From IMG/VR virus record IMGVR_UViG_3300028048_000093: DNA of 64,000 nt; one strand, 5' to 3'. The notes beneath the pieces were generated by a model. The model saw only the letters and a list, made by a program, of their open reading frames with translations, did no database searches and was not told the DNA's origin. Positions 13,129 through 35,198 of the stretch are shown one piece after another. The position numbers and the translations under genes are program-made. Every line of letters begins with the position of its first letter. Positions within the stretch are counted from its first letter, which is position 1. Origin of the DNA: a virus. Its lineage: Duplodnaviria; Heunggongvirae; Uroviricota; Caudoviricetes; Crassvirales.

Positions 13129-13579
13129 CCTTCAGGATATAATGTCTGTGAGGTATCTCTACTCTCTCTACCCTGAAGAACACTTGATTGGTGTTTGGGT
13201 TATCCAACCCACCTCTCTCCTTGATATATGGACCAAATTTCAGATAGTTAAAGTATTCCAAGTTCTCGTCATCAAAGGGAAACTTTTCTAACCCAGAGTA
13301 CCAAGCAACTTTGAACCCTCTCAACTTGGCTAGGTAAGCCAAATAAAGCAGGGATTGCACATCATTGTCTCCACCCATGAACAATATACATGAAACACCT
13401 TTATTCTCCTCCATCAAACCCATGAAAGTATCTTGGTCAAGAGGTTCTCCTTTATCTTCCCACAGCCAAGGAGAGTGGCAGCCCTCACATTTGTGGGGGC
13501 AGCCACTTATGTTGATTGCCAGTGAAATCTCATCTGGCACCTCAGCCATTACTATAGCTGTGTTTATATACTTTAGCAT
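13091..13579 (-). CDS. nrdG: anaerobic ribonucleotide reductase activating protein NrdG
   Basis: ISGCPHKCEGCHSP gives CxxxCxxC as in E. coli NrdG. Immediately downstream of nrdD. Confidence 0.75.
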   Translation of the reverse strand: MLKYINTAIVMAEVPDEISLAINISGCPHKCEGCHSPWLWEDKGEPLDQDTFMGLMEENKGVSCILFMGGDNDVQSLLYLAYLAKLRGFKVAWYSGLEKFPFDDENLEYFNYLKFGPYIKERGGLDNPNTNQVFFRVERVEIPHRHYILKDETKKFRRHEKD

Positions 13580-15804
13580 ACATCTTTACCATTTGCATAG
13601 TATCTTCTGTCTGCCTCAATCCTTCTTCCCTTTGAAAATCCCTTGATAGGTCTCAGATAGCCTATGATTCTAGTCCACCAGCTTATGTCCTCTGAGCCAC
13701 ACTTAGGACATTTCTTAATAGGATGCTTGCTGATATAGCCACACTTCTCACATTTGCTATTGGGAATATTGAAGGTATAATAGTTAGTACCATTCTCAAT
13801 AGCATACTTCATCAGTTTCAGATACTGCTCCTTGGTAAGATGCTCTTCCAAGTTACAGTGCAAAGCTACTCCTCCATCCAAGCTGTCAACATATCTCTTG
13901 CCATGCAGCCTGAATTTCTGAAGGATGTCAATGCTCTTATCCTCAGGCTTATAGAAGTATGAGTTGTAGAGGTTTCTATCTGTGGGAACCCAATAACCAT
14001 CCTGCTTATCCCAGTTATAGTTCTTGATAGCAAGATTCTCAGCAGGCACAAACTCAGTATTGAACTTAAGAATGTGCTTCTTGTTATATGGATTCCTCTC
14101 AGCAATCCTGTTCTGCTCACTGATTGTACTAGTGATTAAGTTACAGAACTCCTGATACTTAGGATTGTCACTTACAGTGATACCAAGGAACTCTGCTGCC
14201 TCATTCACACCATTGATTCCAATAGTGAGGAACTGCTGATTAAGACTGATGTAGCCCTCCTTATATACAGGCAACATATCATGGTCATACAAATCCCATA
14301 GGAGTTCATTGTAGGCAGCATGATACTTATAGACTCTCTTGAGAATATCTATCAGATAACTCTTAAAGTCGGGCCAATATACTCCCTCTACATCTACCTT
14401 AGGTCTACCAGATAGGTTCACAAAGTTCTGTGTAATCCTATTGAGATTGAGGGTAATGACTGACTTGGAGCCAGTAGCTACACCAGTAAGGCCATTGGTA
14501 AAGCTGAACTCATTCTTATCCAGCTTATTCTTTAGCCTACAGCAGGATGACAAGGCATCAGCATTGTCTGACATATACACAAAGAAACTATGACCAGCAG
14601 CCTGCATTTCAGCAGTAAAGTTTGCATAGTCTTGGTCTATAACTTCCTTACCATCAGTCAGTAAGGCCATAGTCTCTACAGGAAAGGTTAAGAGTGTCTT
14701 GGACCTCTCATTGTTAAACCACCTCATAAACTTCTTCTGTAGGTAGTCTATTCCCTCCCATTCAGGCTTTGTTCCATCAGGATATACGAAATCCTTGAAC
14801 AGTGCATCCCAGTAATTCTTGTCGTAGTAAGATATATTAGTAAACGGGGATTGATAACTTCTATTTCCAGCAGGTTGGTTTATTGTGTAAATAATGTTCT
14901 GAAATGCCTGCTCTATAGCCTGAGAGATAGTTTTCTTTGTATCAAATATGAATGGCTCTCCAAGCATCTTGAGTACTAGCTTCTGCCACCAAGAGGAATA
15001 TCTCTTTGGGTCTGCTGCCTCTACTTGGAAAGCATCTTGGTCTCTTTCCCAGAATCTCTTGCCCCACTGCATGACACAATAGTAATAGAAAGTATTGAAA
15101 AACTCTCCAAATGCTACTGCACCTTGGAACTGTGATGAAAGTAGGAAAGCCAAGTTGTTGAACTGACCAGTGAATGAGTTCATGTTATGAGGAGCCTCTG
15201 TGTCAAGCTTATCCAAAGTGGCAGTACCCTTGTTGAGGAATGGGTACATATTTACAGCCACACAATAAGGTTTGATTGCAGGAGCTGAACCCTCATCATG
15301 CTTATAGACCACATGGGACTCTAAGTCCTTTATATAGTCAGGAGCCTCCTCACCATACATTTCCTTAAGTTTCTTGGTTACTCTATACCTACTAAGGTCA
15401 GCGTTTGCACTCTTATAGAGTTCTGCTTCCAAAGTAGCTACATTCTTATTCTGAATGTTGGCATTGGCATCAATCTCTGAGGCAGTTGCAGCATTGTCAT
15501 TGCTATGAACATACTGCTCAATGTACTCTGCCCTCTGAGCTATGAACCTCAGTTCACTATGTCTTTGCCTATATAGGATAAATGCCTTGGCAACCTTGTG
15601 GTTGTTGTTCATCAGGATGTTCTCAACCTTATCCTGAATCTCCTCAACACCAATGGTATCACCCTTGACAAATGCTTTCCTCAAAGCAACCAACACTCTA
15701 GGAGTAGGAGTGTAACCTTGTGACCTATAGGCTTTGGTGACAGCATTTATCACCTTGTCTATATTGAACTCCTCACTTTTTCCGTCTCTTTTAATTACAA
15801 CCAT
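13573..15804 (-). CDS. nrdD: anaerobic ribonucleoside-triphosphate reductase NrdD (class III)
   Basis: N-terminal ATP-cone (VIKRDGKSEEFNIDKV). C-terminal Zn ribbon CEKCGY...CPKCG followed by the glycyl-radical motif RIIGY. Confidence 0.85.
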   Translation of the reverse strand: MVVIKRDGKSEEFNIDKVINAVTKAYRSQGYTPTPRVLVALRKAFVKGDTIGVEEIQDKVENILMNNNHKVAKAFILYRQRHSELRFIAQRAEYIEQYVHSNDNAATASEIDANANIQNKNVATLEAELYKSANADLSRYRVTKKLKEMYGEEAPDYIKDLESHVVYKHDEGSAPAIKPYCVAVNMYPFLNKGTATLDKLDTEAPHNMNSFTGQFNNLAFLLSSQFQGAVAFGEFFNTFYYYCVMQWGKRFWERDQDAFQVEAADPKRYSSWWQKLVLKMLGEPFIFDTKKTISQAIEQAFQNIIYTINQPAGNRSYQSPFTNISYYDKNYWDALFKDFVYPDGTKPEWEGIDYLQKKFMRWFNNERSKTLLTFPVETMALLTDGKEVIDQDYANFTAEMQAAGHSFFVYMSDNADALSSCCRLKNKLDKNEFSFTNGLTGVATGSKSVITLNLNRITQNFVNLSGRPKVDVEGVYWPDFKSYLIDILKRVYKYHAAYNELLWDLYDHDMLPVYKEGYISLNQQFLTIGINGVNEAAEFLGITVSDNPKYQEFCNLITSTISEQNRIAERNPYNKKHILKFNTEFVPAENLAIKNYNWDKQDGYWVPTDRNLYNSYFYKPEDKSIDILQKFRLHGKRYVDSLDGGVALHCNLEEHLTKEQYLKLMKYAIENGTNYYTFNIPNSKCEKCGYISKHPIKKCPKCGSEDISWWTRIIGYLRPIKGFSKGRRIEADRRYYANGKDVC

Positions 15805-15805
15805 A

Positions 15806-16852
15806 TTATTTAGAGTTTAACCAGTAAATCAAATCATTCTCTCCAGTCTCATTTATTCCACTTGGCACACGGGGTCTAGAAGAGAGATATTGATAGAGCT
15901 GGGTTCCGAGGACAAATGGATGCTCAAATTCTATCTGCTGGTTCTTCCCATAAATGAGAGTGCCCTCTTTCTGGGTGTCCTTGAACTCCCATACCAGAGG
16001 TGTCAATGTGTACTTGTTCACCACAATGAACTTGTAATCAGCTAACTGATAGTCCTTGAACACAGGGTCTCTGTCCATATTATCCCTGATAATCCTCCAA
16101 TAGAGCCTAGCCTGAATGTCATATCTCCACTGTACAAAGGACTCGAAGAAATCCCACTCAGTATGTGAGGAAGTCTTGAGGTCAATGGGATATACAATCT
16201 TGTTCTTATGGTCAACCAACAGGAGGTCAGCCATACATCTGTAGTTTATACCATTGAAAGTAGCCTTGAACTTCAACTGATATTCCCTTACAAATGTGTC
16301 ATCGAAGGCATTGTTAGGCTGGAAATAGAATCTGGTAGCATCTGAACCTCTGAGTACAGTTACTGCTGCATCTATCTGCTCTTTTGTTGCTGTATCAAGG
16401 ATGGTTCTACCCTGTGCAGAGTGCATGAGTGAATAATACTCTGAACCCTGCTCCTTGATAACTTTAGCCCTTGTCTCAGGCTTCCAGTTGAGCTGATATT
16501 TCAATGCCTCAGTTCTTCCTATAATCTCAATGTCAGGTATGGATGAAAGTGTCCTATGGGTCACACAGAACTCTCCAAACAATGCCTTTACCATCTTCTC
16601 AACAGACTCTGTGACAGGAGGAAAGTCTGCCACAAGAAACTCTTTATCAAACTCTTTTTGACCACCTGTGATAAGTGCATCAACTGCTCTTCCAAAGGTG
16701 AGAGAGGGAGTTTCCAGTTTGTCAAACAGGTTATCCAGCTTATTGAAACCCTCTCTGGCAAACCTTGCAATGGTGCTATAAGAGAGAGCTTCATCTGCCC
16801 TGTAGGTAGGCTCGTCTACTTGCCAACTAATATCTAATAATCTAGGATTCAT
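15806..16852 (-). CDS. PD-(D/E)xK family nuclease (RecB/lambda-exonuclease-like)
   Basis: CMADLLLVD...IDLKTS matches the D...(D/E)xK catalytic pattern. Confidence 0.5.
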   Translation of the reverse strand: MNPRLLDISWQVDEPTYRADEALSYSTIARFAREGFNKLDNLFDKLETPSLTFGRAVDALITGGQKEFDKEFLVADFPPVTESVEKMVKALFGEFCVTHRTLSSIPDIEIIGRTEALKYQLNWKPETRAKVIKEQGSEYYSLMHSAQGRTILDTATKEQIDAAVTVLRGSDATRFYFQPNNAFDDTFVREYQLKFKATFNGINYRCMADLLLVDHKNKIVYPIDLKTSSHTEWDFFESFVQWRYDIQARLYWRIIRDNMDRDPVFKDYQLADYKFIVVNKYTLTPLVWEFKDTQKEGTLIYGKNQQIEFEHPFVLGTQLYQYLSSRPRVPSGINETGENDLIYWLNSK

Positions 16853-17366
16853 TGTCGAGCAAACTTAATAGTAGATTAACATCTTTGATAGCATATACAA
16901 CAGCATAGCAACACTTGATATTAGTCTCAGACTGGTATTTATCCAGCCATTCCCTGAACATTCTTATCTTGTAGGGGGTCACATCATTCTTGAAGCCCTT
17001 GACCTCAAGGAACACTTTGGTTCCCTTATAGTCAAACACCATGTCAGGTGTGTAATGTACTGCAATGGGCTTGGATGTGATAAGACCAAATCCTTTCTTG
17101 CCATATCTGTCATAGTATGGAACAGAGAATCCATCCCTGTCCCATACTTTACATTTCTGTGGTTCATAGTCAACCTGTATGCCCTTGTCAATCAAGGACT
17201 TATAGATGCTCTTTTCAAGCTTTGACCTAAACTCTATGCCATCAAAGTTAGTTGGTGTAGCATTAATGATTTTCTTGTTCTCCATAAAGGAAGCTGTGCA
17301 ATTCAGGAAGGATTTCAAGAGCCTTCTGTGCATCCTCCTTGCTGGTGAATACTGGGAGATACTCAA
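16842..17366 (-). CDS. small nuclease-like protein (DUF1064/VRR-NUC-like pattern)
   Basis: FDGIEFRSKLE...YTPDMVF...FLEVKG resembles the FDSK...Y.PDF...E.KG pattern of phage endonucleases. The 5' end overlaps the next ORF, so the likely start is further in. Confidence 0.4.
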   Translation of the reverse strand: MSISQYSPARRMHRRLLKSFLNCTASFMENKKIINATPTNFDGIEFRSKLEKSIYKSLIDKGIQVDYEPQKCKVWDRDGFSVPYYDRYGKKGFGLITSKPIAVHYTPDMVFDYKGTKVFLEVKGFKNDVTPYKIRMFREWLDKYQSETNIKCCYAVVYAIKDVNLLLSLLDNES

Positions 17367-17784
17367 GGTTGAGATTAATGTTCTCTACTTGGGTAATCTT
17401 TCCTGTGCATCCAATGACCCACAGTTTGCTGTACCTCTTAAGGTCTTTGCCTCTGTTCAGTTTCTTGGAAATCTGAAAGAGCAAGATGTTAAAGGTAGCA
17501 AGTGCAGTCACATCAGAAATCACTTGCAGGAAAGCTGCTGCCCCGAAGAATGGAGCACCAATCTGTCTGGCCACCATCCTTACATAGGGATGCAAGGCAT
17601 CACCCTCATCTTCCTTGACTTCTACATAGCCAAGTTCAATGAGTTTGACAAGGTTCTCCTCAGTGATGGGGACTTCCTTCTTGGCCTCTACCTTCCCAAA
17701 GGGAGTCTCAACAGGCTGGATTAACTCTATGGTATCTCCTACCTTTACTTCCTTCTTGGACTGTTTCAAAAAATACTTTGCCAT
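17263..17784 (-). CDS. hypothetical protein (173 aa)
   Basis: ORF track entry. Confidence 0.45.
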   Translation of the reverse strand: MAKYFLKQSKKEVKVGDTIELIQPVETPFGKVEAKKEVPITEENLVKLIELGYVEVKEDEGDALHPYVRMVARQIGAPFFGAAAFLQVISDVTALATFNILLFQISKKLNRGKDLKRYSKLWVIGCTGKITQVENINLNLEYLPVFTSKEDAQKALEILPELHSFLYGEQENH

Positions 17785-17797
17785 TTTGTTTTATTAA

Positions 17798-18475
17798 TTA
17801 AGTTAATAACTCGTCATACCATTTGATTGGTATGCCATAATTGTCAATCAAGAGTTGGTTTATCTGGCGGAATATGTGGTATGGCATCTTAGTGTGTGTC
17901 CTTGCATAGAATGAAGGATGATGCACTTTGATGATACTATTAGTCCTTTTGTCAATGTATGGCTCAAATGTTTGAGCTTGACTGCCAAATAAAACATAAA
18001 TCAGACCTGGTTCCCTATGACTTAGGTTGTCTATGAGTTTAGATATAAAGGGTCTCCATAGCATGACATGGCTTCCTATCCTGTTCATTTCACAGGTAAG
18101 GGCTGAGTTAATCATAAGTATGCCTTGCTTTGCCCATGATTCAAGGGTCACGTCAAACTTGATGGGAGGATGTGGTATCTCATAGTTTATACAAGCTTCC
18201 TTGACCACTTCAAGGGAAGGAGAAAGAGGGCATGACCCCTCTTTATTGCCAAACAATACTCCAGTTGCAACTCCCTTCTGTGGATATGGGTCTTGACCTA
18301 GGAATATGACTTTGCAGTCATGCTCACTACATAGGGTAAATGCCTTGAATATGTCAGTGAACTCAGGCACTATTGGCCTCCTCTGATAAAGAGGGGCCAA
18401 TATGCTGACTACTCTATCCAAGGATGGTCGGTCTATCACTTTAAGCCAATCTCCGAAATATTCTTCAATAGTCAT
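17798..18475 (-). CDS. ung: uracil-DNA glycosylase (family 1)
   Basis: VIFLGQDPYP is the water-activating loop. GILMINSALT and HHPS complete the UDG motifs. Confidence 0.8.
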   Translation of the reverse strand: MTIEEYFGDWLKVIDRPSLDRVVSILAPLYQRRPIVPEFTDIFKAFTLCSEHDCKVIFLGQDPYPQKGVATGVLFGNKEGSCPLSPSLEVVKEACINYEIPHPPIKFDVTLESWAKQGILMINSALTCEMNRIGSHVMLWRPFISKLIDNLSHREPGLIYVLFGSQAQTFEPYIDKRTNSIIKVHHPSFYARTHTKMPYHIFRQINQLLIDNYGIPIKWYDELLT

Positions 18476-19208
18476 CTTCGTTCAATGTTACCAAGTTATC
18501 CACATAGTCACTCAATATCCTGTCAAATGTCTCATCAGTAGCCTGCTCAGGTCTTGGTAGTATTGGGGACACTATTATACTGGGGCTAGAGTCAAGGATT
18601 ACCTCAACTTTCTTGCCTGATACTAGTGACTGAGCACTACCGTTGAGTCTTACAACTCTAGCTGGTGTAGTACAATACAGGGGAATGAGTTTCTTGTAGA
18701 TTGTCTTTGGAATAAGCTCCTCCTGACGGGATAAGACTGACTGAGGAACCCTACAGATGCACTTAAGCACCTGTATGGCTCTTGTCTCAGGGTCATATTG
18801 TAATCTGAAGGTAAGCATGAACAATGGCTCAAAGTTCTCATCTAGGATGAGACCAGGGCAACCATAGTATATGTTGCCACTGTTTGACTTGACACCTGTG
18901 AGTCTCTGATTGAACCTTGTTCTCATAAAGTCTTGGAGTATGGTTCCAGCCATCTTCCTATTTGTGAGACCATAGGTGTAGTTGTTGAACATAGGAACCA
19001 CAATCTCAGTTACACCCTTTATCTTTGCTTCCCTTGCAAGGTCTGCTAAGAATACAGGTATCTCAAAGGTGTTCCCACTTATGTCAACTGACAGGAGGTG
19101 AGAGAATAACCTTCCATTCTCTAGGTTACTCCACTCTACATCATCTATGTGATAGTAACTCCTAGTCATACTCAGGGACTCAAAGGCATATTGTTCTACT
19201 TTGTCCAT
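18465..19208 (-). CDS. hypothetical protein (247 aa)
   Basis: ORF track entry. Same operon as the E1-like and JAB genes. Confidence 0.5.
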   Translation of the reverse strand: MDKVEQYAFESLSMTRSYYHIDDVEWSNLENGRLFSHLLSVDISGNTFEIPVFLADLAREAKIKGVTEIVVPMFNNYTYGLTNRKMAGTILQDFMRTRFNQRLTGVKSNSGNIYYGCPGLILDENFEPLFMLTFRLQYDPETRAIQVLKCICRVPQSVLSRQEELIPKTIYKKLIPLYCTTPARVVRLNGSAQSLVSGKKVEVILDSSPSIIVSPILPRPEQATDETFDRILSDYVDNLVTLNEDDY

Positions 19209-19209
19209 A

Positions 19210-20469
19210 TTACTCGTTCTTTATTCTCATTGATATACCATCATAGGCAGTGAAGAAAGGCAAACTCCTGATAGGGGCATTTACCAATTCATTGGCTACG
19301 AAGTTAGTGAAGAGATTGACCATGATACTACCTATCATATTAGCCATGTAGGTAGTCTGCTTGTAGGAGCATACAGTCTCATCAGCCTCCTCATCTGAGA
19401 AGAGAAACTCCTCTGAATACTTCTTCAGTGCAGGAGCATTGTCACCAGTGATACAGATGACCTGCAAATCCTCTGCTGCCAGTCTGCCATCAATGAACAG
19501 GCAATGTCTTCTCTCCTCAACTGGCTTATTGATTACATGAGTCATCCACTTATTGAAGAAGAGCTTTCTTGCTGACATATTGTCAAAGCCACATATCATA
19601 ATGTCAGATGCAGAAGACTCCATTGTAAATCTCTGATTCACAGAGAATACACTGTTATAGTCTGCATAGTTCTGTACAGCTCTTGCAAGTGCATCCACCT
19701 TATAGTTGCCTATATCAGACTTACCATAGAACTGACCTGACATATTGACAGCTTCAACTCTATCATCATCATAGATATAGACAGCCTTAGGATTCATCCT
19801 AGCAAGCAGGAAACCAACATAGGAACCTATACCTCCTACTCCAGCCAATGTAACCACCTTCTCCTGAATGGCATTATACCACATAGCTCCACTAAACCTT
19901 GCAGTATTCTCCTTCACTTCTATGGAACCAGAGTTCTCACTCAGCAATTCTGAGAGATTTGCCATGATACCCAATGCTGTAAGGTACTCCATTTCCTCAT
20001 CTGAGAAATTGGTCTCAGGATATGGGTCAGGATTGTTGAAATGTGCAGTATAGAAACTGCCCACTTGGGTCTCATCAGCATCATTCTCCATCAGATTCAT
20101 AAACTCCTCAATCTCAAAGAGCTGTTCGTCTGTGACAAACACCCTGTGGGTATTACCATCATAAGTCCACTGGAATACCTTGATAGGTTCAGCACTGAAA
20201 GGAACTCTTATAGACTCATGGTCAATGACTGCCTCATCATCATTATAATAGTTGCTGTTAATGAACCTGAATAGCAATATCATCATGTCCCTAGTGAGAG
20301 GTACAGCACTGGCTGGTGTGCCTCTGAGTTCGTACACCATACTTACTACATGGTTGGTTACAAAGTTCCTAGTATAGAAACCTCTGCCATCAAATATTTC
20401 CTGTGATGCAGCATACTCATGGAGTTCCACATCACCTATTGTCCTGAGTTCAGATATACTCTTTAACAT
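19210..20469 (-). CDS. E1/ThiF/MoeB-like adenylyltransferase-fold protein with ~190-aa N-terminal extension
   Basis: Rossmann motif VVTLAGVGGIGSYVGFLLARMNPKAVYIYDDDRVEAVNMSGQFY matches the ThiF/E1 nucleotide-binding block. No CxxC zinc motifs and no Cys in the N-terminal domain. Confidence 0.7.
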   Translation of the reverse strand: MLKSISELRTIGDVELHEYAASQEIFDGRGFYTRNFVTNHVVSMVYELRGTPASAVPLTRDMMILLFRFINSNYYNDDEAVIDHESIRVPFSAEPIKVFQWTYDGNTHRVFVTDEQLFEIEEFMNLMENDADETQVGSFYTAHFNNPDPYPETNFSDEEMEYLTALGIMANLSELLSENSGSIEVKENTARFSGAMWYNAIQEKVVTLAGVGGIGSYVGFLLARMNPKAVYIYDDDRVEAVNMSGQFYGKSDIGNYKVDALARAVQNYADYNSVFSVNQRFTMESSASDIMICGFDNMSARKLFFNKWMTHVINKPVEERRHCLFIDGRLAAEDLQVICITGDNAPALKKYSEEFLFSDEEADETVCSYKQTTYMANMIGSIMVNLFTNFVANELVNAPIRSLPFFTAYDGISMRIKNE

Positions 20470-21769
20470 TGCTCATATAGGTATAAAGTTCTTCAATCAT
20501 CATTTCCTTAACAAGGCTGTCAGGCAAGTCCTCAAGGAATCTTACCATGTCATAGGCACATACTTCCACAATGTCTGATTCATCATAGTCAGTGCCATGC
20601 AGGTTAAATACCCTTTCTTCAAGGGCTTCATCCCTAGTCCATACAAGCAGCTCCACAAACTGTTCAAGCCAGCTTTCAAGAGCTTCATAGTTCTCTTTCT
20701 CCTTCAAGTCTCCAAACCTCTTCTCATAGAGTCCGTCCATCTTCTTAACCCACTCTTCAAGGTCGATATTGTTGTTCTCATCAACGAGAATACAGCCTGT
20801 GAGCAACTGGGTACATAAAGACTTAATGAGGTTCTCATCAAAGGATTCTGTGAGTGCCAAGGGATAGGGGAGTTGTTCTTTTCCCTCCATTTCGGGAAAT
20901 AAGTTGCCTTGAACAGGCTCCTTCTCCTGTTTGACAAGGTTCTTCTCTGGTGTCTTTTCCTCATGTGAGAAAGCAACACCTGACCTTACATTAGCAGGCT
21001 CATGTATTTCCTGCCTTGTAGGGACTATCACAGCAGGTCTGTAGCCTCCTCCATTATAACTGGTGACTACTGGCTTCTTCTTGTTTCTGATAGCACTCAA
21101 CCTTGCATCCACATCCTTGAATTTCTCCTCTACTGTAGCCTTGACTATCTCAAGTGGGAACCATTCAATTATTGTGGTCTCCTTCTCATCACTGGTGTCC
21201 TTTGTGGTGACTTTACCCTGTGACAAAGGCACAACGGTGTTCTCGAATGAATTGTAGAATGAGTCCTCTGTGTAGACAATATGAGCCTCTGCTTTCACCT
21301 TCCTGACCAACTTTCTTGTGATTCTGGCAGTATATGTGCCAGCATTATTCACAATGAGTGATACAAAGTGAGTGACATCACTGCCCTCTTGTTTCAGGGT
21401 ATTGAGGTCTGTTCCACTGAAGAATGTAGCCATATTGTTGTGAGAGTGGATAAGACCCTCATAGACACCAGGCTGTAACAATAGACCCCTGTTAGCTACC
21501 CTATAGGCAATAATCTCAGGGCTATCATCATAGTCTGTGAATCCAGCAGAGCCAATGTCCATTACAAAGATGTCAAGGCAAATAACCTTGAATGTACCAT
21601 CTTCCATAGAACCTTCAACCTTATAGAACAGAGTACCTGACCATTCTACATCATGTACTCGGCTGCAAAGATGCCTGATTTTAGCCTCTACAGGCTCAGG
21701 AATCTCAATCTTAAAGGTAGAGGCACCTTGAGCCATTTCCACCTTCTCTTGTTTCTTTTTCTCTTCCAT
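20450..21769 (-). CDS. JAB/MPN (JAMM) metalloprotease-domain protein with long acidic C-terminal region
   Basis: HSHNNMATFFSGTD gives a perfect JAMM motif (HxHx7Sx2D). Confidence 0.7.
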   Translation of the reverse strand: MEEKKKQEKVEMAQGASTFKIEIPEPVEAKIRHLCSRVHDVEWSGTLFYKVEGSMEDGTFKVICLDIFVMDIGSAGFTDYDDSPEIIAYRVANRGLLLQPGVYEGLIHSHNNMATFFSGTDLNTLKQEGSDVTHFVSLIVNNAGTYTARITRKLVRKVKAEAHIVYTEDSFYNSFENTVVPLSQGKVTTKDTSDEKETTIIEWFPLEIVKATVEEKFKDVDARLSAIRNKKKPVVTSYNGGGYRPAVIVPTRQEIHEPANVRSGVAFSHEEKTPEKNLVKQEKEPVQGNLFPEMEGKEQLPYPLALTESFDENLIKSLCTQLLTGCILVDENNNIDLEEWVKKMDGLYEKRFGDLKEKENYEALESWLEQFVELLVWTRDEALEERVFNLHGTDYDESDIVEVCAYDMVRFLEDLPDSLVKEMMIEELYTYMSNVKEYI

Positions 21770-23027
21770 ATCTGTAATTGATTACTTCAATAGCTTTTGT
21801 TAATATGTAATGGAGCAAGTTAATATCAACCAATATGGTGGTGTTACTTGCAGTCGCAGCTGTTCTGTCAAGGAAATGTAATCTCTGCATTTCTCCCTTG
21901 AACATGAACATTTCTTTACCTTCAAGCCTCTCAATATCCTGAATCCTGTTACCTATGGCAGCATTATAGACCATTCCATTGGCAATATAGTACTCATTGA
22001 TAAGACCTGAACTGAATAACCTGTCCTTGTGTATTGCTACTCTTTGTTCCCTTATGTTCTTGTTGTGCCACTTAATGAACTCATTGCTCACTCTTATCCA
22101 AAGACCAAGCAAATCCTCACCAAGTGTATATCCTCCATTCCTATAAGTGAACTTGATGTGTCCATTCTTCAAGAAATCAAGAACAAATGGCTGTAGCATA
22201 TCAGCATAATAACAGTCATAGTAGTCCTTAAGTGAACCTTTCCATTTAGGAGCTTCCAATTTAATGAGATTGTCTTGGTTGCTTCCTATATTCTCCAGCC
22301 TTCTGTAGGGAGTGCCAGCTATGGATTCAACTGTAACATACTTGGCTATCTCAAATGAGTATAAGCCCCACACATTGATGTCATACCTGCCACTTAGTGT
22401 TCTTATGGTGTTATTAATTGGTCCACTACCTGTGCATGGCCTGTAGAAACCTTCAGTATTGATACCAGGCAAATGTGAATGTGCATAGCCACTCAGCCAC
22501 TGGTCTGATGGGTAGGTAGTCCTTGCCATGTTGAACCTTTCATAGGTCTTTCCCTCTAGGGTAACAGGGACTCTTACAAACAGGTCATAGATTACTGTAC
22601 TCTTATCATACTCATTGGTGACTGTCACCTCTGGGAACCTTATGGTAATAAGGAAAGCCTTTTTGTCAATATTAGGGCTGTGCATCTGAACAACCTCTAG
22701 GATATGGTCTCTAATTACTGGTGTCAGATAGTCTATGATGCCTAAATCAGGAAGATATTCAAAGAAAGTCTTTCCTCTTCCATGAGCCTCATAGTCTTCC
22801 CTATTAAGGGTATAACTACCATACTCATTACTGTCTGCCCACCTTCTGATGCCCAGATTTCCAAGTGTCTTTTCAGACAACCAGTTTATCAGTTCATCAA
22901 ATGTATATAGAGAGTTATCCACAAGAGGCTCAGTGAACTGGTGCTCAAATACTTCTATGATTGCTTGTGCTCTTACAGTCACATTATCATAGATTCTCCG
23001 AACTCTTTCTCTTGCTTCTTCCGTCAT
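21711..23027 (-). CDS. hypothetical protein (438 aa)
   Basis: ORF track entry. Contains HSHLPGINTEGFYRPC, which could be a Cys active site. Terminator at 23028-23075 upstream. Confidence 0.5.
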   Translation of the reverse strand: MTEEARERVRRIYDNVTVRAQAIIEVFEHQFTEPLVDNSLYTFDELINWLSEKTLGNLGIRRWADSNEYGSYTLNREDYEAHGRGKTFFEYLPDLGIIDYLTPVIRDHILEVVQMHSPNIDKKAFLITIRFPEVTVTNEYDKSTVIYDLFVRVPVTLEGKTYERFNMARTTYPSDQWLSGYAHSHLPGINTEGFYRPCTGSGPINNTIRTLSGRYDINVWGLYSFEIAKYVTVESIAGTPYRRLENIGSNQDNLIKLEAPKWKGSLKDYYDCYYADMLQPFVLDFLKNGHIKFTYRNGGYTLGEDLLGLWIRVSNEFIKWHNKNIREQRVAIHKDRLFSSGLINEYYIANGMVYNAAIGNRIQDIERLEGKEMFMFKGEMQRLHFLDRTAATASNTTILVDINLLHYILTKAIEVINYRYGREKETREGGNGSRCLYL

Positions 23028-23075
23028 TTTCTATACATAAAAAAAAAGAAGGGGCAGGGCATTTCTGTCCTACCC
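23028..23075 (-). terminator. rho-independent terminator abutting next start codon
   Basis: Minus-strand AAGGGGTAGGACAGAAATGCCCTGCCCCTT followed by T9. Confidence 0.5.
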
Positions 23076-23094
23076 CTTCTAGTCTGTTGGATTC

Positions 23095-23811
23095 TTATTT
23101 CATACCTCTGAACATATTGTCCAGCTCTGCCTTAGAGTAGATACCTCCCTTAGGAGCAGGCAGTTCAGCACCAACAATGTCAGCAATCTTCTTGCCATCA
23201 GCAAGAGACAGATGACCATTGTTAATCAGGCAGCCAACCAGCTCAACAAGACCAGCGATGGCCTTGCACTTCTCCTCTTCTCCCTTCTTGCAGCCAGGAG
23301 CAGCAGGCTGTTCAACCTTCTTCTCTGTCTTGGGAGCAGGCTTTTCAGCCTCAGCCTTAGGAGCAGGAGCAGCGGCCTTCTTCTCGGCCTTCTCAACCTC
23401 AGCAATCAGGTCAGCGGTCTTACACATAGTAAAGTTCTTACCATACTTCTTGGCAATGACCTCCTGCAAGCCCAGCTTCTTTACAGCTGCATAAGCCTCA
23501 GGTCTTGACATAGCACCTGAGTTGATGTGCTTCTGAGCCTTGGTCAGTCTGAACACAAGGTCATTGGTGATAGTTCCATTATAAGGAACATCGTGAGGCA
23601 GGATAGCATCATCAGTCTTGAACTCAATACCTGACACACCTTCCTGAATGGTCTTGTTCTCTACGTTGAAACCAGCAGCACGAAGGTCTCTCTTCAATTC
23701 TGCTACTGTGGTTGCTGTGGACTCAATTACCTTAGTCACCTGACTGTCGGTGTCCATAATTGTAAAACTTCTTGGATTCATTGTTTTTTTTTTTTCGTTA
23801 ATGGAAATCAA
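23095..23811 (-). CDS. hypothetical protein with K/A/P-rich low-complexity linker
   Basis: APAPKAEAEKPAPKTEKK linker. The likely start is the second M (MNPRSF, 23780), just after an A13 tract. Confidence 0.5.
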   Translation of the reverse strand: MISINEKKKTMNPRSFTIMDTDSQVTKVIESTATTVAELKRDLRAAGFNVENKTIQEGVSGIEFKTDDAILPHDVPYNGTITNDLVFRLTKAQKHINSGAMSRPEAYAAVKKLGLQEVIAKKYGKNFTMCKTADLIAEVEKAEKKAAAPAPKAEAEKPAPKTEKKVEQPAAPGCKKGEEEKCKAIAGLVELVGCLINNGHLSLADGKKIADIVGAELPAPKGGIYSKAELDNMFRGMK

Positions 23812-23829
23812 AACTTTTCTCTCTTTGGT

Positions 23830-24855
23830 CTAGAAGGGTAAAGCATAAGGGTCATTGTCTCTGTCAGCCTCGTCAAAAAGACTTAACAGGGTAACACGGA
23901 ATTTATTTTGGCCCAGAGACTTATACATATCTGACACATCTTTGCCCCCTTCAAAGGGTGGTAGAGTGATGTTGGTGAAGCCAGTCTGTTCTGACAGCTT
24001 CTTACCATCTGTTAGTCCAGCCTCATCATTGTCAAAGAGAATATACACATTAGTGAACCTTCTCTTCAACTCTGATATGGCAGTATCACTCATTCCATAA
24101 CCTTCACCTTGGACAGCAACAGCAGGAATACCTGTGTTTGCCCATAAGCATAAGGCATCTTTAAGTGATGAGCAGATGACCACTCTCTCACCACTTTCAG
24201 GAATTTTGGTCCACAGGCTTATGACACTCCTGTCATGCTTATTAGACCACTTATAACCAGCCTTGTTATATGGCTGGTAAATCTTCAAAGTAACTTTCCC
24301 CTCCTTATGCTCAACATAAGCATAGGCAAGTTTGTCAGCACCAAGTACATACCTATTGCCACCTGATACAATAATCTTGTGGGATATAGGATAGACCTCT
24401 GCATACTTAAGCCACTCCAAAGGAACACCATAGGATGCCCAATAGTCAATATCATACTGCCTCCACTCTCTGACTTTGCACTCCATTTCACTATCATTCC
24501 TATGGGAAGTAATGTCCTGAATTGCACAAGGCACATAATCTTTGACTGTTGCTCCTGCTGTAAACTTTTTCATGTCTTGTTGTATTCTATTGAGAACTTG
24601 CCTGTAGTTGCAATGCCACAATTTAGAGAGGAGGTCAAATATGCCCCCTCTCTCTTTTGTAGCAAGGTCAACCCAGTAAATCCTCGTACCATTATTTGAG
24701 TAAAGCCCAAATGAAGGTCTCCTATCTTGTCTCAATGGACTTGAAATAATACAGGGAACCTCACTTACTCCTAGGTAATAGGACACTAAATCTGCATCCG
24801 AAACCTTAGCCTTAATCTCATCAAATGTAACAGAGTTATTACCAGTGCTGAACAT
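23830..24855 (-). CDS. DnaG-like DNA primase (Toprim domain)
   Basis: Toprim acidic motif ILFDNDEAGLTDGKK. The N-terminus (PSFGLY) resembles a degenerate DnaG zinc-finger region. Confidence 0.6.
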   Translation of the reverse strand: MFSTGNNSVTFDEIKAKVSDADLVSYYLGVSEVPCIISSPLRQDRRPSFGLYSNNGTRIYWVDLATKERGGIFDLLSKLWHCNYRQVLNRIQQDMKKFTAGATVKDYVPCAIQDITSHRNDSEMECKVREWRQYDIDYWASYGVPLEWLKYAEVYPISHKIIVSGGNRYVLGADKLAYAYVEHKEGKVTLKIYQPYNKAGYKWSNKHDRSVISLWTKIPESGERVVICSSLKDALCLWANTGIPAVAVQGEGYGMSDTAISELKRRFTNVYILFDNDEAGLTDGKKLSEQTGFTNITLPPFEGGKDVSDMYKSLGQNKFRVTLLSLFDEADRDNDPYALPF

Positions 24856-24877
24856 AATTTATATCTTTAAGAGTTAG

Positions 24878-25819
24878 TTACTTCTGTTGACCCCAAGGTG
24901 TCTGTCCCTGACTAGCAGGAGGGAATGGCATTGCACCAGCAGCAGGCTGTGCAAAGTTAGTACCCTCTACCACATACTCATGCAGGTCTGTGCAATCAAA
25001 CTCAGAGTTGGTCATAGCACCAGCCTCCTGTGTCTGCTTTACATCAGCATCAAGCTTGCTGTAGTCAGTTACATTGTTCTTCAAGAACATCCTTGTATAG
25101 GCAGTCTGGTACTGTTTGTTGTCATCAGTTGTCCTGATACCAAACAGAATCTTCAGCTTGTTGTTAGGCTGATAGCCCAGGATAGTGGAAATCTCAGTGA
25201 AGTCACCCTTGAAGTAATCTTCAATGTGCTCCAGTGTAGCCTCACTATCAGGCAGCTTAGTAGCATCCTGCCATACATACTTGTTCTCGTCCTTCACAAA
25301 CTTGAGAGGAGAAGGGATATTCAGGTAGGCAATCAGGAACTTGATAAGGTCTTCCTCACCATAATAGGCAGGTCTGTAGTCCTTGTCAATGTTAGCAGGG
25401 CCATTGCTATACATAGGAATGACATGGTTCTTTGCATCTTCCACACCAACCCAAGCAGTGTTACCATACTTGTCAATCACCTGTACCTTAGTCTGGTCTC
25501 TGTTATACCTGTACTCCTTCCTGATGAACAAAGATACCTTACTGATGAAGTCCAAAGGCTCACCAGCACCATCCTTGTACTTTTCAGGGTCTGCCTTGGT
25601 GATGAAATCAAGCCTTACCTGAGGAACTTTCCTCTTGTTGCCCTCTTCACCAACCTCAGCCTCACCTACATACTCAGGTGCGCTTTCCAGTTCACGACCA
25701 TACAGCTTCTCCAGCTCTTCCTTGGTTGGGTTCACACCAATAATGAATACACTGGCTACACCAATGAATCTTTTGATTGAACCACCTTCCGTACTTACTT
25801 GACCTTTACCAAATGCCAT
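24878..25819 (-). CDS. hypothetical protein (313 aa), possibly ssDNA-binding
   Basis: Sits between the primase and the Sak4-like ATPase. No motif seen, so the function is only a positional guess. Confidence 0.4.
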   Translation of the reverse strand: MAFGKGQVSTEGGSIKRFIGVASVFIIGVNPTKEELEKLYGRELESAPEYVGEAEVGEEGNKRKVPQVRLDFITKADPEKYKDGAGEPLDFISKVSLFIRKEYRYNRDQTKVQVIDKYGNTAWVGVEDAKNHVIPMYSNGPANIDKDYRPAYYGEEDLIKFLIAYLNIPSPLKFVKDENKYVWQDATKLPDSEATLEHIEDYFKGDFTEISTILGYQPNNKLKILFGIRTTDDNKQYQTAYTRMFLKNNVTDYSKLDADVKQTQEAGAMTNSEFDCTDLHEYVVEGTNFAQPAAGAMPFPPASQGQTPWGQQK

Positions 25820-25838
25820 AGTATTACAGCTTTATTGG

Positions 25839-26252
25839 TTAGTCAATAGGAGCTTCTTCACCAGGAGCTTCTGTACCTGCACCCTCTGTACCCTCAGGTG
25901 CCTCTGTGCTCTCAGGAGCAGCCTCTTCTGCGGGAGGAACAAGTGTGTCAGGAACAAGTGTGTCAGGGTACTTAAGTGCCCACTTGGTCAGCTTGATGGG
26001 CTTGCCATCCTTGTCAACCTTACCAGTGTCCTCCACAGTTCTCACTACCAAGTCTTCAGTGGTGTAACCACCAGTAGCCTCCTTGATAGGAGCCTCATAG
26101 GTGTCCAACTGAATCTGGATTGAAGCCAACTCCTTCTGTCTCTCTTCGATTTCCTCGTTGAGCTTCTGTTTTCTCCTTACAAGGGGAGATACATTCTGAG
26201 CAGTCCTCTTGATTGAAGCTGCCAGAAACTTGTTGATTTTCTTTTCTGCCAT
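25839..26252 (-). CDS. hypothetical protein (137 aa), acidic P/E/A-rich tail
   Basis: ORF track entry. Confidence 0.45.
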   Translation of the reverse strand: MAEKKINKFLAASIKRTAQNVSPLVRRKQKLNEEIEERQKELASIQIQLDTYEAPIKEATGGYTTEDLVVRTVEDTGKVDKDGKPIKLTKWALKYPDTLVPDTLVPPAEEAAPESTEAPEGTEGAGTEAPGEEAPID

Positions 26253-26264
26253 AATGTTAATGAT

Positions 26265-26561
26265 TTAATATATTAAAACTACTACCCTCTTGTTGGCATC
26301 AAGGGGGCTTGGATTCTTGTAGATGTAATTGATGCTGTGCTCTCTCCTATACTCTTCAAAGATGTGGGACAGACAGTGAGGAATAGCACCCCTCTCTTGT
26401 TCATACAGATGTATAGTGAACTTCCCTATTCTAGTGGCATCTATACCTCTTTCATTGAGATAGTTCATTATCAGGTTGCTTGATTCATCATCTGTCAGTC
26501 CAGCACCCCAGAATTTGTAAAGGAGTTCTATCACCTTACCTCTATCCATTGTAGTAGGCAT
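26265..26561 (-). CDS. hypothetical protein (98 aa)
   Basis: ORF track entry. Confidence 0.4.
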   Translation of the reverse strand: MPTTMDRGKVIELLYKFWGAGLTDDESSNLIMNYLNERGIDATRIGKFTIHLYEQERGAIPHCLSHIFEEYRREHSINYIYKNPSPLDANKRVVVLIY

Positions 26562-27255
26562 TTACCTTTGCTACCACATAGCCAAGGTCATTGGGGATAT
26601 ACAGCTCCTCGAACATTCCATAAGGAGACTTTGGTGATGCAGTGAACTCATCCTCATTGGTGATGAACTCCTTCACAATCTTCTTTGTGCCTGCATCAAA
26701 CCTGGACCTACCTACAAGGGTGACATCAAACTTGCCCTCAGGTGTGACATATTCATCCACCATCTTGCCAGTTGTCTTCATCTTAAGGTAAACCCTACCA
26801 TCCTGCTGAGGAACTTCCTCACCATGAGCAAGCACTATGATGTTCTTGTCTGAGTCACCATATTTCTCAATGGCAGCAAAGATTTTACCCATGAAGTAAC
26901 CAATCTTCTTGGGAGTGTCCCATCCACCTTTGAGTGCGTTGTCCATGTAGTAGTCCTGCATAAGATAGTTAAAGTCATCCACCACAATATTCTTGAAGGG
27001 ACTCTGCAACAGCTGCTCAATAGCATAGGCTACCTGCTCAGGATTATTGGTGATAACCCTATTGCCATTCTGCATGGCACTAACTTCAGTAACCTTGTAG
27101 AGTTCCCTACTCTTGGGGAATGTAAGAGGCTTGGAAGTGACACTGATTACATAGGTCTCTTCAGGATTCAAACCAATGTGGTTCAAATCAGGAATCTGCC
27201 CAATGCTGAATGTCTTTCCAAATCCACTTTTTGCTAAGACTAAAATTCTACTCAT
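26542..27255 (-). CDS. Sak4-like RecA-fold ATPase (AAA_24-like)
   Basis: Walker A AKSGFGKT and Walker B IVVDDF. Size of about 230 aa is typical of the phage Sak4 family. Confidence 0.5.
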   Translation of the reverse strand: MSRILVLAKSGFGKTFSIGQIPDLNHIGLNPEETYVISVTSKPLTFPKSRELYKVTEVSAMQNGNRVITNNPEQVAYAIEQLLQSPFKNIVVDDFNYLMQDYYMDNALKGGWDTPKKIGYFMGKIFAAIEKYGDSDKNIIVLAHGEEVPQQDGRVYLKMKTTGKMVDEYVTPEGKFDVTLVGRSRFDAGTKKIVKEFITNEDEFTASPKSPYGMFEELYIPNDLGYVVAKVNAYYNG

Positions 27256-27293
27256 GTTTTCTTTTTCTCTTTTTGACCTGCAAAGGTAAGTGT

Positions 27294-28463
27294 TTATTTC
27301 TTCCTGCGCAAGCCATTAACAAATTCCCTTAACCTAAGTATAAAGAATTGCTTTGCTGGCTGTTGCTGTAAACTCTTGAGATAAGCATAGACCTTTCCCA
27401 TTTCAGCTGTGTTGTCAGGCTTTGGGAGTTCAGCCCAGTTACAAGTGGCACCATCAAAGAACAAACCTACTATGCCTCCTAGCTCTCCATCCCTGTTGAC
27501 TAATACTTCCAGTGTCCTGAAATGGTCTTTGAACTTGTCTATGGGATAACCCAGATACTCCTTAAGCCCAAATCTGAATGGACTATAGATACCTAGGACT
27601 ATATTGGCATCATGTGCAGTGTACTTTGTATCACCCAATCCAGCAGTAGTAGGTCTTGTTCTGTTCAACTTGACACTATCCACTGACTCATTATCAGTAT
27701 TCTGCTGCTGAATATTCACAGGAGACTGCATATAGTTGTCTCTGAGTAGGATGCAATATTCACTCCATTTGTCTATGGTCTGTTTCTTTGTGAAACCCCT
27801 TTCAGTATCAATGAGGTTTACAGTATCACCGATGACAAGCACATACTCATCAGGGTCATCAGGCTCATAGTGGTCAAACTTCTGTACCTCTTTCTCAAAG
27901 CCTAGTTCATCCTTGATTTTGATGGTCTTATAAATAACCTTGCCATGCTCCTCGGCATACTTCTTACACTCCTTATACATACCTGTAGGGTTCCTCTCCT
28001 CTGAGAAGATAATGTGGTTTTCCACATACTCGATGATGTCTCTCAGTTCATCTGATTCCAAAAGGTCAAGAATATCCTGAGGGACTGGCTTCTCATTATC
28101 TGAACTTCTGAGGTCTGCTGGACTTATCCTGATGTTACAGTGTCTCAACAACAGCCAAGAATAGAACCTAGTCATAATTCTCTCCTTTGTCTCCTCCAAT
28201 GGGAAATAGATAGCCTTGATTGATACCTTGGTCTTCTTCTCATTGTAGTAGCAATAGAGTAGAGCATCAAAGAGCAAATGAGACATCAACTGAGTCTTAC
28301 CACCTTTTGTAAAGCTGGTTATCAGGTAGTAGGTTGCCTGCTCCCATCCAAGGAAGTCTTGTGCAAACCTTCTGAATGGTGATGGTATGGTATTAATACC
28401 TCCATCTATCAGTCTTTGTCTCCTTTTTCTCAATATTTCCAGTGTTCTGCTTCTCAGACTCAT
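27294..28463 (-). CDS. DnaB-like replicative helicase
   Basis: Walker A TKGGKTQLMSHL and Walker B VLVIGD in a RecA-like C-terminal domain of about 390 aa. Confidence 0.65.
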   Translation of the reverse strand: MSLRSRTLEILRKRRQRLIDGGINTIPSPFRRFAQDFLGWEQATYYLITSFTKGGKTQLMSHLLFDALLYCYYNEKKTKVSIKAIYFPLEETKERIMTRFYSWLLLRHCNIRISPADLRSSDNEKPVPQDILDLLESDELRDIIEYVENHIIFSEERNPTGMYKECKKYAEEHGKVIYKTIKIKDELGFEKEVQKFDHYEPDDPDEYVLVIGDTVNLIDTERGFTKKQTIDKWSEYCILLRDNYMQSPVNIQQQNTDNESVDSVKLNRTRPTTAGLGDTKYTAHDANIVLGIYSPFRFGLKEYLGYPIDKFKDHFRTLEVLVNRDGELGGIVGLFFDGATCNWAELPKPDNTAEMGKVYAYLKSLQQQPAKQFFILRLREFVNGLRRKK

Positions 28464-34782: not shown

Positions 34783-34859
34783 TGGCGAATTAGACAGGAT
34801 TTGAACCTATTACACTTTGTATGACAAACAAATGCTCTATCCAAATGAGCTACAAATTC
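34783..34859 (-). tRNA. tRNA-Asp(GTC), CCA encoded
   Basis: Manual fold: acceptor GAATTTG/CTAATTC, D arm GCTC...GAGC, anticodon loop TTGTCAT, T arm with GGTTCAAATCC. Confidence 0.7.
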
Positions 34860-34866
34860 TTTACCA

Positions 34867-34879
34867 TATTGTAAGTGAC
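34867..34879 (-). repeat. recurring motif GTCACTTACAATA (minus orientation) 7 nt upstream of tRNA-Asp
   Basis: Variants of the same motif also occur at 35181-35191, 35273-35285, 35563-35575, 39745, 39896 and 39927, mostly 7-15 nt 5' of tRNA or tRNA-like starts. Confidence 0.4.
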
Positions 34880-35089
34880 TCTATCTTTTGTTGTTAATAA
34901 TCAATAAAAGCAGCTTCTTATTCTCGGCTAATGCTGCAAAGCCTCAACCCAACATAGGTATGTCAAGTGCTGGGATTTAGCTCTCTTGGTTCCTGAAAAG
35001 GACGGGTAAGCAGCCTTGATATGTAGCTGGCTGCTTGTACAGATTGCGTTGTGGAACTACTAGAGAGTGTAGGATAGTCACTAAGTTGT

Positions 35090-35135
35090 GTCAACATTAA
35101 AAGTGTTGTGCTCTAACCACTGAGCTAATCTGCCG
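35090..35135 (-). pseudogene. tRNA-Lys(TTT)-like 5' fragment (acceptor, D arm and anticodon arm only)
   Basis: Reads CGGCAGATTAGCTCAGTGGTTAGAGCACAACACTTTTAATGTTG. No T arm or 3' acceptor follows within 250 nt. Confidence 0.4.
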
Positions 35136-35139
35136 ATAA

Positions 35140-35167
35140 TGGAGGCGGATATAGGAGTCGAACCTAT
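35140..35167 (-). pseudogene. orphan tRNA 3' fragment (T arm, acceptor 3' strand and CCA)
   Basis: Reads ATAGGTTCGACTCCTATATCCGCCTCCA. No matching 5' half is present upstream. Confidence 0.35.
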
Positions 35168-35198
35168 GCTTGATGTGGTCTTGTAAGTGACTATGTAG

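Follow-up and report, generated by a model that had tools for sequence, protein, structure and literature searches.

Between the primase and uracil-DNA glycosylase (UDG) genes of a crAss-like phage, five co-oriented open reading frames (ORFs) on the minus strand form a compact cassette. It occupies positions 18465-23811 of a 64,000-nucleotide stretch (IMG/VR record IMGVR_UViG_3300028048_000093), the whole of which is called the window below. The genes are here named A to E in the order in which they are read, and are analysed as a candidate ubiquitin-like protein (Ubl) conjugation system. All five ORFs had been listed in an initial annotation made from the sequence, and re-translation found them on the minus strand with the same coordinates.

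The cassette and its conservation

The five genes overlap or are separated by gaps of no more than 67 nt, and they are therefore almost certainly co-transcribed. The last 59 nt of B are also the first 59 nt of C, the JAB peptidase gene, which is read in another frame (21711-21769). A comparable overlap of approximately 62 nt between B and the JAB gene is annotated in Bacteroides phage crAss001 and in bajarodcaudo virus 1. The overlap appears to be conserved, and translational coupling of the two genes might be possible.

To describe the distribution of the cassette, hidden Markov models (HMMs) of the five families were searched against all ORFs of 87 loci. Of 352 confirmed IMG/VR matches, 80 contigs were retained for this set, which also includes five phage records and two other IMG/VR contigs. 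The order A-B-C-D-E is complete in 78 of the 87, and the nine loci that lack the full set are all cut by the contig end on the A side. D and E are found in every locus, with E downstream of D. Colinearity holds in all 78 of the loci that are long enough, with identities of the E1-like protein D down to approximately 35%. It had been suggested that the adjacency of C and D be looked for in related phages; the pair is conserved there, as are all five genes.

The same five-gene order is annotated, mostly as 'hypothetical' proteins, in crAss001 (gp79-gp75), bajarodcaudo virus 1, DAC15 (gp048-052), Dulem virus 41 and Flavobacterium phage FpV4 (gp53-gp49), the E1 of the last being only about 36% identical. 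Two of the crAss001 genes are labelled in GenBank as 'thiamine biosynthesis protein' and 'metalloprotease domain containing protein'. At the DNA level the similarity of the region to bajarodcaudo virus 1 and crAss001 (Steigviridae) is weak, with 66-72% identity over 14-18% of the query.

In INPHARED, homologues of the E1 occur in 77 records and homologues of B in 74, and the taxon counts of the two become identical when three unrelated MoeB-like matches are removed, leaving both families in one and the same set of 74 records. No cellular counterpart was found in a scan for the E1 motif of one genome per GTDB species, which returned only 10 contigs; all come from assemblies of the metagenome-assembled genome (MAG) type, and several are the size of a phage genome. 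On the basis of this phage-only distribution and the conserved five-gene order, the cassette is phage-specific; it was not acquired recently but is ancient and fixed in the replication module. Coordinates are collected in Table 1.

Table 1 Genes and predicted features of the cassette, with the two flanking genes
Feature	Position	Strand	Remarks
Primase gene	23830-24855	minus	
Gene A	23095-23811	minus	238-aa ORF; Ubl precursor candidate
Beta-grasp Ubl domain of A (ORF residues 11-99), predicted	23515-23781	minus	ends ...KHINSG
Gene B	21711-23027	minus	438 aa; candidate E2-like carrier/conjugating protein
UBC/UEV/RWD-like core of B (residues ~100-245), predicted	22293-22730	minus	AlphaFold2 model
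H183-S184-H185 of B	22473-22481	minus	invariant
C198 of B	22434-22436	minus	invariant
Gene C	20450-21769	minus	439 aa; predicted JAB/MPN+ (JAMM) metallopeptidase
JAB/MPN+ domain of C (residues ~25-160)	21290-21697	minus	then a variable linker; C-terminal domain helical and conserved
JAMM motif of C (residues 108-121)	21407-21448	minus	
Gene D	19210-20469	minus	419 aa; ThiF/E1-like adenylating enzyme
N-terminal extension of D (residues 1-184)	19918-20469	minus	no Cys; lineage-specific
E1-like adenylation domain of D (residues 185-419)	19210-19917	minus	Pfam ThiF, PDB profile matches
C367 of D	19369-19371	minus	crossover region
Gene E	18465-19208	minus	247 aa; fifth cassette member
UDG gene	17798-18475	minus	

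The five proteins and their surroundings

The initial annotation read a ThiF/MoeB/E1 Rossmann block in D, and this is clearly correct. D matches Pfam ThiF (PF00899) over residues 198-417 with E=1.3e-18, its score of 67.5 bits being above the cutoff of 28.1. The recognisable elements are an arginine finger (R191), a G-x-G-G-x-G loop, D234-x-D236, K257, D296, R301 and, in the crossover region, C367. Across six divergent orthologues, the invariant residues are R191-F192, G210/G212/G213, D234, D236, N242, K257, D296, R301, D327-G328-R329 and C367. The phage orthologues were then aligned with MoeB and ThiF of E. coli MG1655. The columns of the arginine finger, the glycine loop, both aspartates, the lysine, the aspartate of the D-N pair and the arginine are invariant throughout this alignment, and C367 shares a column with C187 of MoeB and C184 of ThiF. 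The position of C367 fits that of a crossover-region cysteine able to accept an activated C-terminus, for which it is the candidate. As had been stated at the outset, the CxxC zinc motifs present in the two E. coli proteins are absent from all the phage E1s in the alignment. D has what is expected of the E1 superfamily, namely a Rossmann-type adenylation domain with a glycine loop, an arginine finger, and Mg/ATP-binding aspartate and lysine residues.

A profile of the E1 family was searched against the PDB. UBA5 ranks first (2.6e-12), followed by MccB (1e-10), PaaA and TcdA (1e-9), then MoeB/ThiF (1e-7) together with eukaryotic E1s, and finally Cap2 (9e-6) and BubCD (1e-5). An alignment of C250 of UBA5 with C367 was not obtained, since the C-terminal 91 residues of D found no match with phmmer in the PDB. 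In NCBIfam, ThiF models match D best (1.1e-17), but the cutoffs are missed by a wide margin: the scores against ThiF/MoeB models are 29-64 bits where 152-449 are needed (for example, 64 versus 159 bits for ThiF PRK08644). D is also far below the cutoffs of TcdA and of PRTRC_ThiF (TIGR03736; 37.3 bits, cutoff 144.75), and its matches to the E1-E2 models of PADLOC are limited to residues 198-290 of the Rossmann part and are no better than 1e-10. Judged by its sequence, D is a distinct minimal E1, with a predicted single adenylation domain of about 235 residues.

The remainder of D is a different matter. Its first 184 residues indeed contain no cysteine, as noted earlier, and this extension is common only to three close relatives (L003, L008 and L064). 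The E1s of crAss001 and DAC15 have unrelated extensions of other lengths, those of FpV4 and Dulem virus 41 have none, and in bajarodcaudo virus it is absent or unrelated. The extension is lineage-specific, and is therefore not a conserved E2 or ubiquitin-fold domain (UFD) module and lies outside the conserved core. The earlier suggestion that an E2 might be found here has been dropped.

C contains the motif HSHNNMATFFSGTD (H-x-H-x7-S-x2-D), which is the perfect JAMM motif that had been claimed for it, although it lies at residues 108-121 and not at the start of the protein, where it had been placed. The zinc-binding and catalytic set is intact (E42 within EWSG, H108, H110, S118 and D121), and is conserved in all uninterrupted orthologues, across lineages. 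The Pfam Prok-JAB match of the window protein is below threshold (19.5 versus 25 bits), and Prok-JAB is matched by 13 of 15 orthologues, with a best E value of 3.5e-5. The best PDB matches of a profile of the family are CSN5 (E=0.006) and archaeal JAMM1, aligned across the JAMM motif. C is thus predicted to belong to the JAB/MPN+ (JAMM) metallopeptidases.

The JAB gene is split in two related contigs, at 1727-1939 in L003 (IMGVR_UViG_3300028805_000175) and at 4816-5075 in L038. In L003 the break comes after the first His of the catalytic HSH motif and before its Ser, and in L038 the downstream JAB ORF restarts at the Ser of HSH. A group I intron (Rfam RF00028) is found just upstream of the break in both (69.8 bits in L003 and 66.4 bits in L038), and in L038 approximately 830 nt lie between the intron match and the downstream JAB exon. 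In the window the JAB gene is uninterrupted, with no Rfam match in 14000-28000.

The ORF of gene A opens at a TTG. An ATG at 23781, which would give a protein of 228 residues, is likely to be the true start because it matches the 'ME(A)RK' starts of the orthologues. The orthologues share an N-terminal domain of about 90 residues that ends K-x-[IV]-x-S-G, with ...KKIKSG as the tail in crAss001. Ser98-Gly99 is invariant across 14 lineages and is usually followed by Ala, which by analogy makes Gly99|Ala100 (Gly89|Ala90 when counted from the ATG) a candidate processing or activation site. AlphaFold2 predicts a β-β-α-β-β-β β-grasp at residues 14-91, with a low-confidence tail at 94-99 that is presumably flexible; the pLDDT (the confidence score of the model) is 66 overall and approximately 80-88 in the β-grasp. 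In the model, A therefore has the pattern of a Ubl modifier, a β-grasp followed by a tail ending in a conserved glycine.

This is not quite the Ubl that had been anticipated. The earlier suggestion was to look for a β-grasp with a C-terminal Gly-Gly, and the sequence PKGG, 15 residues before the C-terminus of A, had been put forward as a possible processed tail. PKGG is present, but is specific to the window and is rejected as a tail because it is not conserved in the orthologues. The predicted Ubl lies instead at the N-terminus, with the invariant Ser-Gly internal to the protein. Beyond it, A contains a conserved helical segment ('MSRxEAYxxIKxxGLQ...KNFTMCKTxDLI'), which by eye possibly resembles a helix-extended-helix (DNA-binding-like) motif, a low-complexity linker of Pro, Ala, Lys and Glu, and a helical C-terminal domain. 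At the extreme C-terminus (23098-23140), Y-S-x-x-E-[IL]-[DN]-x-M-F is kept in most orthologues amid variable sequence, and resembles a peptide on which a partner protein might dock.

B belongs to a large family, which comprises 947 clusters in a word-indexed search and 2282 representative clusters in an exhaustive HMMER search (E<=1e-3), none of them with a Pfam domain. The HSH...C stretch that had been pointed out in this protein is present, and is part of a set of residues invariant over 149 diverse members: N138, H183-S184-H185, C198, G200, G202, P203, E226, E234-S235, G238 and P240. The AlphaFold2 model made from the alignment of these members is confident (pLDDT 91.5, predicted TM-score (pTM) 0.82). 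Its core has a helix (102-115), three strands (124-137, 143-156 and 166-172), an ordered loop carrying HSH and C198, and two further helices (204-213 and 217-230), the loop being located between the third strand and the first of these. The core is flanked by an N-terminal helical region and a C-terminal α/β domain, and the E2-like part (residues 131-247) is the only one still aligned to FpV4 by tblastn.

The arrangement suggests a UBC, UEV or RWD-like domain, in line with the earlier idea that an E2/UEV-like fold be sought in this protein. Searches that might have linked B to known E2s gave nothing: Foldseek of the model against the PDB found no significant match, profile searches of PDB sequences no match, and hhalign of the core against canonical E2s (approximate sequences) a probability of about 0.1% or less. 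Single-sequence searches of Pfam, NCBIfam, PADLOC and PHROG found no informative match for either A or B, and no family, Ubl and E2 included, was enriched in per-member Pfam scans of the B family (E<=1). Because the Foldseek and hhalign results are negative, we grade the two parts of the assignment separately. B probably holds a domain of the UBC superfold, while its action as a thioester-forming E2 is favoured only slightly. The main alternative is that B is a UEV/RWD-like adaptor, with metal bound by the cluster of His, His, Cys and Glu.

E is poorly conserved: a single residue is invariant and nine more are nearly so, with no Cys, His or Ser among them. It has no match in Pfam, PHROG, PADLOC, NCBIfam or the PDB, the last including a profile search, and no family is enriched in per-member Pfam scans (E<=1). 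All of its 65 homologues lack Pfam domains and are found on phage-sized contigs. E is possibly an adaptor or a target of the pathway.

All the genes between approximately 13.5 and 28.5 kb are on the minus strand, and have functions in replication and nucleotide metabolism. They include an anaerobic ribonucleotide reductase (RNR), a PD-(D/E)XK exonuclease, a resolvase-like endonuclease, UDG, primase, an ATPase and a DnaB-like helicase. The replication or DNA-metabolism setting that had been proposed for the cassette is therefore borne out by the primase, UDG, helicase, exonuclease and NrdD genes around it. Replication functions of crAss001 have been described as middle genes (PMC8375218). The RNR (13573-15804, beside the exonuclease gene) is of the anaerobic class III NrdD type, with a C-terminal glycyl-radical motif. 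The gene syntenic with it is annotated as a B12-dependent RNR in crAss001 and as an anaerobic RNR in bajarodcaudo virus 1, which would mean that the RNR class had been exchanged while the gene kept its place. Further away, at 34783-47634, the phage has 23 tRNA genes, five of them grouped on the minus strand (34.8-40.0 kb) and the other 18 on the plus strand (44.7-47.6 kb). The two groups border the point at about 42-44 kb where GC skew and gene orientation switch.

A proposed conjugation pathway and its alternatives

The catalytic residues are present and conserved, the folds are predicted as described, and the genes are strictly linked. On the basis of these observations we think it reasonably likely that the phage encodes, in these five genes, a system for ubiquitin-like protein conjugation (Ubl-E2-JAB-E1), and that this is part of the conserved crAss-like replication module. 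The initial annotation had raised the idea of a phage conjugation or deconjugation module around the E1 and JAB genes, and it is strengthened here by the predicted Ubl, the UBC-like fold and the conservation of all five genes.

The steps of such a pathway can be proposed from the anatomy of the proteins and from the characterised bacterial systems. A would be made as a precursor, consisting of the Ubl domain, a flexible Ser-Gly tail and a C-terminal helical part. The JAMM peptidase C would cut it at Gly99|Ala100, which would yield the C-terminal fragment as a separate product and a Ubl of 89 residues ending in a free glycine. ThiF, MoeB and UBA5 are homodimers with a single adenylation domain, and the minimal E1 D would adenylate Gly99 and take the Ubl onto Cys367 as a thioester. 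The Ubl would then be handed to Cys198 of B, which would attach it to lysine residues on proteins of the phage or the host, using its own additional domains or acting together with E. C could also reverse the modification. There are bacterial models for the first of these steps: BilC cuts BilA between Gly97 and Ala98 and exposes a reactive glycine, after which the E1 and E2 conjugate the Ubl to lysines (PMC10557695), and BubC cuts the BubAB fusion after Gly229 (PMC11601596).

Several points weigh against this proposal. All the phage E1s have glycine (N-M-S-G-Q) where E. coli MoeB and ThiF have the arginine of the conserved nucleotide-binding motif N-x-x-R-Q. The ATP site is therefore not fully canonical, although the invariant D-G-R further along the sequence may offset the loss. 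The model of A was built on a shallow alignment of 17 sequences and has the overall pLDDT given above, and its Ubl has no family match at the sequence level, with no enrichment of Ubl, E2 or other families in per-member Pfam scans of the A family (E<=1). The Ubl could also stay in place as a permanent N-terminal domain, in the manner of Rad23 or Dsk2, and not be a released modifier. In B, C198 is likened to the catalytic cysteine of E2s by its place in the secondary structure, and H183, H185, C198 and a glutamate could form a metal site instead. E has no explained place in the pathway. Finally, the cleavage, the thioesters and the conjugates are all deduced from the genes.

The alternative that survives best is a system that works without an E2, in which the Ubl, E1 and JAB act as in the archaeal SAMP/UbaA/JAMM1 or Thermus TtuB/TtuC systems. 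B would then be a UEV/RWD-like scaffold or a zinc-binding enzyme, perhaps a substrate adaptor. We consider this rather unlikely. Relative to the secondary structure, the invariant cysteine of B is placed as the catalytic cysteine of an E2, and it is preceded by a motif containing histidine, as in HPN...C. The B gene also lies between the Ubl and JAB genes, like BilB.

A second possibility is that the cassette is a counter-defence module against host Ubl immunity of the type II CBASS (Cap2/Cap3), Bil or Bub kind, in which the JAB strips host conjugates or the phage tags and inactivates defence proteins. The Ubl systems of bacteria are antiphage (PMC10557695, PMC11601596), so that a mirror system encoded by a phage would be a natural countermeasure, and a 2026 preprint reads a UBA5-like family of gut phages in passing as counter-defence (10.64898/2026.03.05.709809). 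However, anti-defence genes are usually patchy and borne on islands, whereas the position and order of the cassette are fixed in the replication block of very divergent Bacteroides and Flavobacterium phages. Moreover, a JAB alone would be enough for deconjugation, and the likeness of the E1 to Cap2, Bil or Bub is no closer than the general level among E1s, as judged from PADLOC and the PDB profile. We therefore regard this explanation as improbable.

The weakest alternative, which also stood in the initial annotation, is that the Ubl is thiocarboxylated (compare ThiS/ThiF, MoaD/MoeB, TtuB, and CysO with the JAB Mec+) and serves in the thiolation of tRNA, DNA or a cofactor, or that the E1 is of the TcdA/MccB type and acts on a non-protein or peptide substrate; despite the ThiF models heading the sub-cutoff NCBIfam matches, the closeness of MccB, PaaA and TcdA behind UBA5 in the PDB, and the 23 tRNA genes of the phage, it is very improbable because neither the cassette nor the genes beside it were found to encode a sulfur enzyme such as a rhodanese, a cysteine desulfurase, ThiG/ThiH/MoaE or a TtuA-type thiolase, and the tRNA genes lie more than 10 kb away. 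Nor was any link between the cassette and the tRNA island found. The E1 furthermore has no zinc CxxC motifs, the Ubl tail is a Ser-Gly inside a fusion protein, and the conserved UBC-like protein with its invariant cysteine would be left without a role.

Returning to a conjugation system, we consider it more likely that the cassette serves the phage's own programme of replication or takeover than that it has a sporadic anti-defence function, because from crAss001 to FpV4 it is fixed in the replication block and not in a variable accessory island. A more far-reaching version can be put forward tentatively, as quite possible. According to this, a large crAss-like clade and Flavobacterium phages encode a complete E1-E2-Ubl-deubiquitinase cascade as a core replication function, which tags replisome, phage or host proteins. 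Cleavage of the Ubl fusion would also free a second protein, possibly one that binds DNA or the replisome, and the B family, with more than 2000 clusters, would be a new and diverged E2 lineage.

Ubl conjugation in bacteria has been demonstrated only recently, in type II CBASS, Bil and Bub, and to our knowledge every characterised bacterial case is a weapon of the host against phages. If the proposal is correct, phages use the chemistry of ubiquitin for their own ends, and it is not confined to bacterial defence. Full-text searches (ThiF, JAB, ubiquitin) and the main comparative papers on crAss phages contain no description of the cassette in crAss-like phages, and the only related statement found is the passing note of a gut-phage protein family resembling UBA5 (10.64898/2026.03.05.709809). 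As a complete Ubl-type tagging system in phages, which is how predicted folds and analogy lead us to interpret it, the five-gene set would thus be previously undescribed.

The proposal, if correct, would also give a function to five genes that hundreds of gut-phage genomes now list as 'hypothetical', 'thiamine biosynthesis' or 'metalloprotease', and the known evolution of ubiquitin signalling would gain a Ubl-fusion precursor and an E2-like family of great divergence. The crAss-like phages that carry the cassette are among the most abundant in the human gut. It is present in cultivable crAss-like phages (crAss001, DAC15/17 and the PhiCrAssBcn series) and in Flavobacterium phage FpV4, which would provide experimentally tractable systems in which to look for targets.

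Comparison with known systems

The E1 adenylation fold and its catalytic residues are common to D and to the E1s of ThiF/ThiS, MoeB/MoaD, CBASS Cap2/Cap3 and PRTRC. CBASS Cap3 and PRTRC also couple an E1 with a JAB. D is nevertheless not a ThiF or MoeB proper, given its scores below cutoff, the lack of CxxC motifs, and a neighbourhood with no ThiS/MoaD or sulfur-pathway partners. Type II CBASS is ruled out because the locus has no CD-NTase or effector and no E2-E1 fusion. PRTRC was suggested by the NCBIfam match, and is ruled out by the low score, the absence of its partners and the lack of a ParB; the PRTRC A, B, C and E models do not match the other four proteins of the cassette.

In the Type I operons of Bub (6E/DUF6527) the Ubl is made as a fusion that the JAB cuts after a conserved glycine, and the E1 is a minimal homodimer that resembles UBA5 and ThiF (PMC11601596). 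Type I has Ubl-E2 and JAB-E1 fusions, and uses oxyester chemistry through Tyr and Ser with no catalytic cysteine, whereas the phage genes are separate, and D and B both keep an invariant cysteine. Unlike the DUF6527 serine protease of Bub, E has no DUF6527 or Ser-His signature, and the phage E1 is no nearer to BubCD than to other E1s. Membership of Bub is ruled out by the invariant cysteines of D and B, the absence of fusions and the absence of DUF6527.

In the UFM1 system (UBA5-UFC1-UFM1), the precursor requires trimming at its C-terminus, and UFC1 is a non-canonical E2 without HPN. The best PDB match of the phage E1 is to UBA5, a minimal homodimeric E1 whose active-site cysteine (C250) is close to the C-terminal end of the crossover loop (PMC11601596). 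The match covers the Rossmann half only and does not imply orthology, and UFM1 is trimmed by cysteine proteases and not by a JAB.

There is a known precedent in phages for a Ubl fusion next to a JAB, as predicted for A and C. In the tail-assembly proteins I and K of lambda and T1, a Ubl with a conserved terminal glycine is fused by a linker to a C-terminal domain, beside a JAB (JAB-NlpC) that is predicted to free it (PMC1779556). Neither an E1 nor an E2 accompanies that pair, which belongs to a tail-assembly module, whereas the phage cassette is in the replication module.

The greatest likeness in layout is to Bil (BilABCD, Types I and II), in which the four roles and the gene order of Ubl, E2, JAB and E1 match those of the cassette. 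The Bil Ubl has a conserved glycine followed by extra residues that the JAB removes at Gly|Ala (PMC10557695), and A has Ser-Gly followed by Ala. Despite the same gene order, membership of Bil is ruled out, since there is no E1 with the IAD-AAD-CYS architecture (inactive and active adenylation domains and a cysteine domain) and A, B and C have no match among the PADLOC models of defence systems. BilD is a large E1 of that architecture, whereas the core of the phage E1 is a single domain of about 235 residues with its cysteine in the crossover region, and the complete E1s of FpV4 and Dulem virus 41 have only 228-235 residues. The extension after the glycine is a few residues in Bil and a predicted folded protein of 139 residues in A. 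Lastly, Bil is found in bacterial defence islands, whereas the phage cassette has a fifth conserved gene and is set in the replication block of a lytic phage.

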